Positions 14,337 to 14,934 of a DNA stretch of 64,000 nt are shown piece after piece; the stretch's first letter is position 1, and every line of letters begins with the position of its first letter. Under the pieces are notes generated by a model. It was not told where the DNA came from and ran no database searches. It worked only from the letters and a program-made list of their open reading frames with translations. The DNA is from Escherichia coli (GTDB taxonomy: Bacteria > Pseudomonadota > Gammaproteobacteria > Enterobacterales > Enterobacteriaceae). The stretch is taken from NCBI RefSeq assembly GCF_029227855.1, contig NZ_CP074356.1. One strand, given 5' to 3'. The position numbers were made by a program, and so were the translations under genes.

Positions 14337-14478
14337 ATCAACACCAACCGGAACCTCCACCACGTGCTCGAATGAGGTGTGTTGACGTCGGGGGAAACCC
14401 TCCTGTGTACCAGCGGGATAGAGAGAAAGACAAAGACCGGAAAACAAACTAAAGCGCCCTTGTGGCGCTTTAGTTTTG
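14337..14478 (+). ncRNA. ryjA: Candidate RyjA small RNA, convergent with and overlapping the soxR 3-prime end
   Basis: K-12 places a ~140-nt sRNA between ghxP and soxR on the strand opposite soxR; here a bidirectional hairpin (AAAGCGCC-CTTGT-GGCGCTTT, 14451-14472) with T-run 14474-14480 would end it. The 5-prime boundary is a guess. Confidence 0.35.
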
Positions 14479-14934
14479 TTCATCTTCCAGCAAGCGTGCG
14501 CCGGTACCTTCTTCTCCTAAGCGGTCGCCCGGGTTACGCAACGGGCAATCACTGCGCGAAAGGCAGCCACAACCAATACATCCGTCCAGTTCGTCACGCA
14601 GCGCTACTAAGGTATGAATGCGCCGATCCAACTCTTCTCGCCATTGGGACGAAAGCTGTTTCCACTCTTTCGCACTTAACGTATGCCCTTCGGGCAACAC
14701 GCCAAACGCTTCACCAATGGTCGCCAGCGGAATGCCAATACGCTGAGCAATTTTGATAATTGCAACATATCGCAACACATCACGTTTATATCGCCGCTGA
14801 TTGCCGCTGTTACGGATACTGGTAATCAACCCTTTACTTTCATAGAAATGCAGCGCCGATACCGCCACACCGCTGCGTTTCGCCACTTCGCCGGGGGTTA
14901 GCAGCGCTTTAATGCGGGGTAATTTCTTTTCCAT
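14470..14934 (-). CDS. soxR: SoxR, MerR-family redox-sensing regulator
   Basis: 154 aa; C-terminal [12 protein letters not shown] 2Fe-2S cysteine cluster; MerR HTH. Confidence 0.97.

Follow-up and report, generated by a model that had tools for sequence, protein, structure and literature searches.

The hairpin considered here lies in the soxS-soxR-ghxP region of Escherichia coli, within a stretch of 64,000 nucleotides that was analyzed as a whole (hereafter the window, to which all coordinates refer unless stated otherwise). The soxR coding sequence occupies 14470-14934 on the minus strand, as given by the listing of open reading frames and by annotated SoxR in K-12 and in matching RefSeq genomes, and ghxP (yjcD), the next gene and co-oriented with soxR, occupies 12575-13924 on the same strand (open reading frame listing and annotation). 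Between the two, on the plus strand and convergent with soxR, is the gene for the 141-nt small RNA SraL, also named RyjA, at 14337-14477.

The sRNA was recognized by Rfam, by the K-12 ncRNA annotation and by blastn. The match to family RF01408 (sraL, "Hfq binding RNA") runs from 14337 to 14477 (+), covers positions 1-142 of the 142-position model, whose terminal helix is the hairpin, and scores 153.3 bits (E 8.9e-36; gathering score 39). The K-12 ncRNA ryjA (b4459, 4277926-4278066) maps exactly onto the same interval and overlaps the 3' end of the convergent soxR by 8 nt. By covariance model and by locus, the sRNA at the hairpin is the established SraL/RyjA. A previous sequence-only reading of this DNA had correctly placed an sRNA convergent with soxR and ending at the hairpin, as the RF01408 match and the K-12 annotation confirm; its label of "candidate" was mistaken, and so was its view that the 5' end could not be fixed from sequence, since homology and a conserved -10 element place that end at 14337. 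The window allele shows no substantive difference from the RF01408/K-12 sraL, with a full-length match and the same coordinates, locus, -10 element and terminator; window and K-12 carry AAAACAAAC before the stem, where the GTDB E. coli representative and E. albertii carry AAACAAAC. An additional RF01408 match on the minus strand (14446-14481, 23.7 bits, below gathering) was rejected as a second sRNA, being the palindrome matching the last helix of the model. K-12 MG1655 annotates the sRNA, most other RefSeq E. coli genomes apparently do not, and in PGAP-annotated E. coli chromosomes (records H1-H32) soxR alone is listed under the hairpin.

SraL is a conserved sRNA of enteric bacteria; it depends directly on RpoS, is induced in stationary phase, represses tig, and ends in a Rho-independent terminator that is conserved among enterics (PMC3753932). 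Targets of this RpoS-dependent sRNA are known (PMC3753932, PMC6582626), and according to PMC6582626, citing Silva 2019, it shields the rho leader against premature termination; binding to Hfq and pairing with the targets tig and rho are taken from the Salmonella literature (PMC3753932; PMC6582626 citing Silva 2019). RpoS dependence was established with a Salmonella lacZ fusion and ChIP (PMC3753932), and sraL expression and RpoS dependence are also covered by bioRxiv 2024.06.20.599902. The promoter is visible in an alignment of 16 upstream regions. The -10 element TACAAT (14325-14330, +), followed by the A/T-rich TAAAG, is nearly invariant as TA(C/G)A(A/C)T, with 6 nt between its end and a purine +1, and the -35-like element CTGGCG (14302-14307, +) belongs to a CTGGC(A/G)AA block that is kept in the 16 regions 17 bp before the -10. 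The -10 element and A/T-rich discriminator, at this distance, would fit an RpoS-type promoter, and a degenerate -35 is typical of the RpoS-dependent sraL promoter (PMC3753932).

The region upstream of ghxP (13985-14200) holds repeated PurR-box-like half sites, AAAAAAGCAAACG(T/A)TTA at 14035 and 14078, together with PurR-box-like AAACGTTATC at 13989 and 14185. Among full matches to the PurR consensus the best one, GCGCAAACGTTATCGT at 14181-14196, has 3 mismatches and is not above chance alone; a similar cgataacgtttgcgca follows soxR in a Klebsiella sp. (L029) and in Kluyvera (L073), both of which lack sraL.

The hairpin and the end of SraL

The segment 14440-14480 reads GAAAACAAACTAAAGCGCCCTTGTGGCGCTTTAGTTTTGTT. 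An inverted-repeat scan identified in it two perfect 13-nt arms, 14446-14458 and 14464-14476, which are 100% complementary and enclose a 5-nt loop (14459-14463). The terminator hairpin is accordingly placed at 14446-14476 on both strands, on the evidence of the inverted repeat, the fold z-scores and a 26-sequence alignment. Its stem is longer than the core that the sequence-only reading had drawn at 14451-14472; that core is present as described except for a one-base slip at its end, which lies at 14471, so that it comprises AAAGCGCC (14451-14458), CTTGT (14459-14463) and GGCGCTTT (14464-14471), 21 nt in all. The flanks given there can be read directly from the sequence, with A-rich AAAACAAA upstream (14441-14448) and T-rich TTTTGTT downstream (14474-14480).

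In a 55-nt context the plus strand folds at -23.8 kcal/mol (z -5.7) and the minus strand, slightly more stable, at -28.5 kcal/mol (z -7.1). None of 200 shuffles folded as well as the hairpin context, which together with the z-scores rules out a chance palindrome. A repeated element (REP, MITE) was likewise ruled out, since the median E. coli genome has the 71-nt hairpin region at one place. The surrounding 1.15-kb segment is 100% identical in many RefSeq E. coli chromosomes and has a match in 5,420 of 5,426 complete genomes. Hairpins of the two-direction terminator type are common in the window, with 6 sites in the 64 kb against 0 in 30 dinucleotide shuffles; the others, A-rich upstream and T-rich downstream, are at 29165-29185, 31037-31054, 38516-38535, 41911-41929 and 57555-57575.

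On the SraL strand, the hairpin has the features of an intrinsic terminator, namely a 13-bp stem with 6 G-C pairs, a 5-nt loop and the tail TTTTGTTC, in which 6/8 positions are T. The U-rich tail (UUUUGUUC...) and 3'-end zone extend over 14474-14485 (+), as delimited by annotation, the TRS terminus and alignment. The annotated 3' end (K-12) corresponds to 14477, and the TRS data set, a published analysis of 3' ends, reports a "primary" ryjA terminus at K-12 4277918-4277931 with its peak at 4277921 (PMC10687069, Supplementary Data 2), which maps to 14472-14485 with a peak at 14482. By both the TRS terminus and the annotated end, the transcript finishes inside the U-tract. The sequence-only reading had staked its case on a plus-strand transcript ending at 14474-14480, and the mapped terminus spans that interval. 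Termination of SraL at the hairpin is therefore effectively established, and the termination documented at this site is that of the sRNA strand. Polymerase starting at the sraL promoter transcribes the GC-cored 13-bp stem-loop and releases the RNA in the UUUUGUUC tract, and the stem and U-tail double as the 3' module of SraL.

Probable termination in the soxR direction

The layout is that of a bidirectional terminator, in which convergent units share one hairpin flanked by an A-tract and, at its opposite end, a T-tract. The TAA stop codon of soxR (14470-14472) lies inside the 3' arm of the hairpin (window sense), a point on which the sequence-only reading was right, as the open reading frame at 14470-14934 (-) confirms. 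Read on the soxR strand, the same stem is followed by the tail TTTGTTTTCC with 7/8 T, and the minus strand passes as a terminator by the measures applied in the SraL sense with stems of 5-12 bp. The predicted soxR-sense U-tract, UUUGUUUUCC at 14439-14448 (-), has 7/8 T after the 10-bp core stem and would be the expected end of the soxR mRNA. A built-in terminator scan called the plus strand only; we regard the missing minus-strand call as an artefact, because the maximal 13-bp stem extension uses up the T's. From 14447 to the terminator of ghxP (12559-12528), the minus strand holds no other site that resembles a terminator.

Mechanistically, the palindromic stem and the A-rich AAAACAAAC before it mean that the complementary strand encodes this hairpin too, with UUUGUUUUCC behind it. 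A polymerase coming from soxR meets the hairpin at once, because the stop codon UAA is part of the 5' arm as read from soxR, and the transcript would most likely end about 25-30 nt past the stop. A ribosome terminating in the stem could occlude the 5' arm and so lower the efficiency of termination. Since ghxP points the same way as soxR, soxR transcription that did not end here would continue antisense through sraL and into ghxP; release at the hairpin would prevent this.

An overlap of the SraL terminator with that of soxR was stated in 2007 by Viegas et al. (PMC2190706), the sole explicit statement that we found. Among the entries listed, the curated Term-seq tables of Adams 2021 contain no soxR or ryjA entry and none at K-12 42779xx, no mapped soxR 3' end appears in the TERMITe or SMRT-Cappable-seq supplements, and the TRS data set gives a terminus for ryjA only and none for soxR. 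The missing soxR 3' end possibly reflects weak soxR expression. Of the earlier claim that both strands terminate here, the symmetric sequence and the SraL 3' end stand as sequence and mapped terminus, while the soxR side is drawn from sequence and from the remark in PMC2190706. We infer, on what we consider sound grounds, that soxR probably terminates at the same hairpin in E. coli. The best explanation as a whole, to which we assign a probability of roughly 0.7, is that the sigma-S-dependent SraL has this hairpin as its Rho-independent terminator and that soxR is most likely terminated there too.

The strongest competing explanation is that the hairpin serves SraL alone, its symmetry being a by-product of an A-rich pre-terminator, and that soxR reads through and is Rho-ended or trimmed. 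We consider this unlikely in E. coli, where the soxR-sense tail UUUGUUUUCC (7/8 T) equals or exceeds the SraL tail (6/8) in U content, the soxR-sense hairpin is the slightly more stable of the two, and no alternative terminator precedes ghxP. It draws support from the lack of a soxR 3' end in the searched lists (Adams 2021 Term-seq, TRS), and further support from the relatives of E. coli.

The hairpin among the Enterobacteriaceae

A SoxR-based scan with one genome per species yielded 80 loci, and in 25/80, all Enterobacteriaceae, SraL was detectable beside soxR by blastn. The genera include Escherichia, Citrobacter, Enterobacter, Leclercia, Pseudescherichia, Pluralibacter, Pseudocitrobacter, Cedecea, Phytobacter, Mangrovibacter and others. 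In 22 of these 25 other loci, the end of the sRNA is no more than 35 nt from the soxR stop codon or reaches up to 7 nt into soxR. When the 3' module was aligned (26 sequences, more than 10 genera), the core C(U/G)AAAGCGCC...GGCGCUUU(A/C)G was almost invariant and the loop varied freely in sequence and in length (5-8 nt). Across the 26 sequences, 95.8% of cells were paired, compared to 30-58% with the register slid; 8/13 stem pairs were invariant, and one compensatory pair, from U-A to G-C on both sides, was seen in 3 sequences from two lineages.

The two tails differ in their conservation. On the SraL strand, at least 4 consecutive T's follow the 10-bp core in all aligned loci except Mangrovibacter (L017), whose tail starts TCGTTATT; the mean is 6.0/8 T and the minimum 5, and Phytobacter (L013) has a one-base tail offset from an extra base in the 3' arm. 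On the soxR strand, the tail, which is the complement of the A-rich pre-terminator segment of SraL, ranges from 2 to 7/8 T with a mean of 5.1, and its fall to 2-4/8 in several genera favors a terminator that serves SraL alone. We found no relation between a better soxR-side U-tract and soxR abutting the hairpin, a comparison in which only 3 loci are separated. Selection for soxR termination across genera is not evident from these alignments, because the soxR-side U-tract is so variable and unrelated to soxR adjacency.

The position of the hairpin relative to the two genes points the same way. It is intact where soxR lies 85 (L023), 150 (L004) or 938 nt (L010) away, and there hairpin and A-tract follow sraL unchanged, as the SraL-only explanation would have it. 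Relatives without sraL (e.g. Pantoea, Erwinia, Siccibacter, Kluyvera) have no similar hairpin after soxR, and several have the start of the next gene within about 30-80 nt of soxR; that soxR there runs straight into the downstream gene with no hairpin again favors the one-directional case. By this distribution, the hairpin travels with sraL and not with soxR, and it is ancestral to sraL. As for the separated loci themselves, extra DNA parts soxR from sraL in Citrobacter youngae CCUG 30791 (L004 2960-3108) and, with a REP-like gccggatgacgcttcgcttatccggcctac, in Cedecea sulfonylureivorans (L023 2957-3040), and the longest separation is that of Enterobacter sp. ENT03 (L010 2960-3896).

Only in E. 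coli, E. albertii and three further loci (L008, L012 and L022) does the stem contain the stop codon of soxR; elsewhere SoxR is mostly shorter (typically 152 aa) and its stop lies 0-34 nt before the hairpin. The overlap is lineage-specific, with a conserved stem triplet used as the stop. SoxR of E. coli and E. albertii (154 aa) ends in ...LEDEQN, that of most relatives (152 aa) in ...LEDD/LEEE. In this part of soxR (14470-14481), the extra codons GAA CAA AAC (Glu-Gln-Asn) are the antisense of the SraL U-tail, and for its stop soxR uses the conserved stem triplet cUAAag. Through a synonymous GAA/GAG change in soxR, the SraL tail UUUUGUUC becomes UUUUGCUC.

Within E. coli, an insertion splits the shared soxR-sraL arrangement in a subset of strains; in about 155 E. 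coli genomes it takes the hairpin away from the immediate end of soxR, a point against a terminator shared with soxR. In strain 118UI (NZ_CP032515.1; L082 190-372, corresponding to window ~14459-14480), about 155 bp are inserted directly after the SraL T-tract, flanked by a 23-bp duplication, CCCTTGTGGCGCTTTAGTTTTGT, that comprises loop, 3' arm and tail. The SraL terminator is intact in this allele, and soxR keeps its stop and loses the 3' arm (soxR sense), the full hairpin being about 180 nt past the soxR stop. The insert is a member of a small family of repeats with matches in 4,572/5,426 genomes at a median of 5 places per genome, mostly at 80-90% identity, and 155 genomes have a copy of the full length with at least 99% identity.

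Relation to known systems and significance

Classical bidirectional intrinsic terminators between convergent genes, of which tonB/P14 is an example, have the same palindromic GC-rich stem between an A-tract and a T-tract. They differ from the present case in that one partner here is an sRNA whose terminator is its functional 3' module, whereas the other partner, soxR, has its stop inside the stem, with activity in its direction predicted. Overlapping bidirectional terminators, which Ju et al. reportedly defined by SEnd-seq in 2019, likewise involve convergent transcripts with 3' ends overlapping around a hairpin. That class has been described as weakly intrinsic and collision-dependent (bioRxiv 10.1101/2022.10.23.513370), whereas this hairpin is canonical in both directions. 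Terminators of Hfq-dependent sRNAs combine a moderate stem with a poly-U tail of 7 or more (PMC6582626). The SraL terminator resembles them as a stem-loop and U-tail on an sRNA labelled Hfq-binding by Rfam, with 6-7 consecutive U's in other genera; unlike them, the E. coli tail is interrupted (UUUUGUUC), has only 4 consecutive U's and is also the antisense of the soxR Glu-Gln-Asn codons.

The SEnd-seq class suggests a different explanation, in which the hairpin pauses polymerases on both sides and head-on and trailing collisions of soxR and sraL complexes release them. Convergent units with 3' ends overlapping by at least 8 nt around one hairpin would suit such a model, and soxR expression, presumably low and constitutive, counts against it. 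Although the model and a ynaJ-uspE example have been described (bioRxiv 10.1101/2022.10.23.513370), that class is not intrinsic-terminator-like, in contrast to the canonical hairpin with U-tracts on both strands found here, and the same work predicts poor efficiency for weakly expressed pairs. The mainly stationary-phase expression of sraL (PMC3753932) also makes dense simultaneous traffic unlikely. We therefore hold collision to be a very improbable explanation of the hairpin. The chance that its role is instead post-transcriptional, by 3' exonuclease protection or by pairing of the SraL and soxR 3' ends with RNase III cleavage linking their decay, seems to us close to negligible, because such a role adds to termination and does not replace it, even though loss of RNase III in Salmonella leads to accumulation of a larger SraL species, for which the authors suggest a cut within the terminator overlapping that of soxR (PMC2190706), and SraL is polyadenylated (PMC5389530, PMC2190706) and stabilised in pcnB mutants. 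Collision-assisted termination and an RNase III-mediated 3'-end interaction are possible as additions to intrinsic termination of SraL and, probably, soxR, rather than as alternatives to it.

The extension of the Escherichia soxR frame into the SraL terminator would, in principle, allow cross-talk between soxR and sraL, through a hairpin and read-through modulated by translation or through 3'-end pairing with co-decay by RNase III; we regard this proposal as decidedly doubtful. If it were true, an oxidative-stress regulator would be linked to a sigma-S sRNA: translation at the 3' end of soxR could affect whether the hairpin forms, and through it any read-through that runs antisense to sraL and enters ghxP, or else the 3' ends of SraL and of the soxR mRNA, being fully complementary, could base-pair and be degraded together by RNase III.

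The feature itself is already known: the sRNA is annotated in K-12, Rfam has a family for it, and its terminator was noted in 2007 to overlap that of soxR. The mildly new points are comparative only, namely the lineage-specific overlap of stop and stem, a hairpin that is ancestral to sraL, and the insertion in a subset of strains. Together, these results have little import beyond correct annotation, for which the exact bounds of the sRNA in the window are 14337-14477, and the predicted terminator in the soxR direction would be the only barrier between soxR and ghxP.
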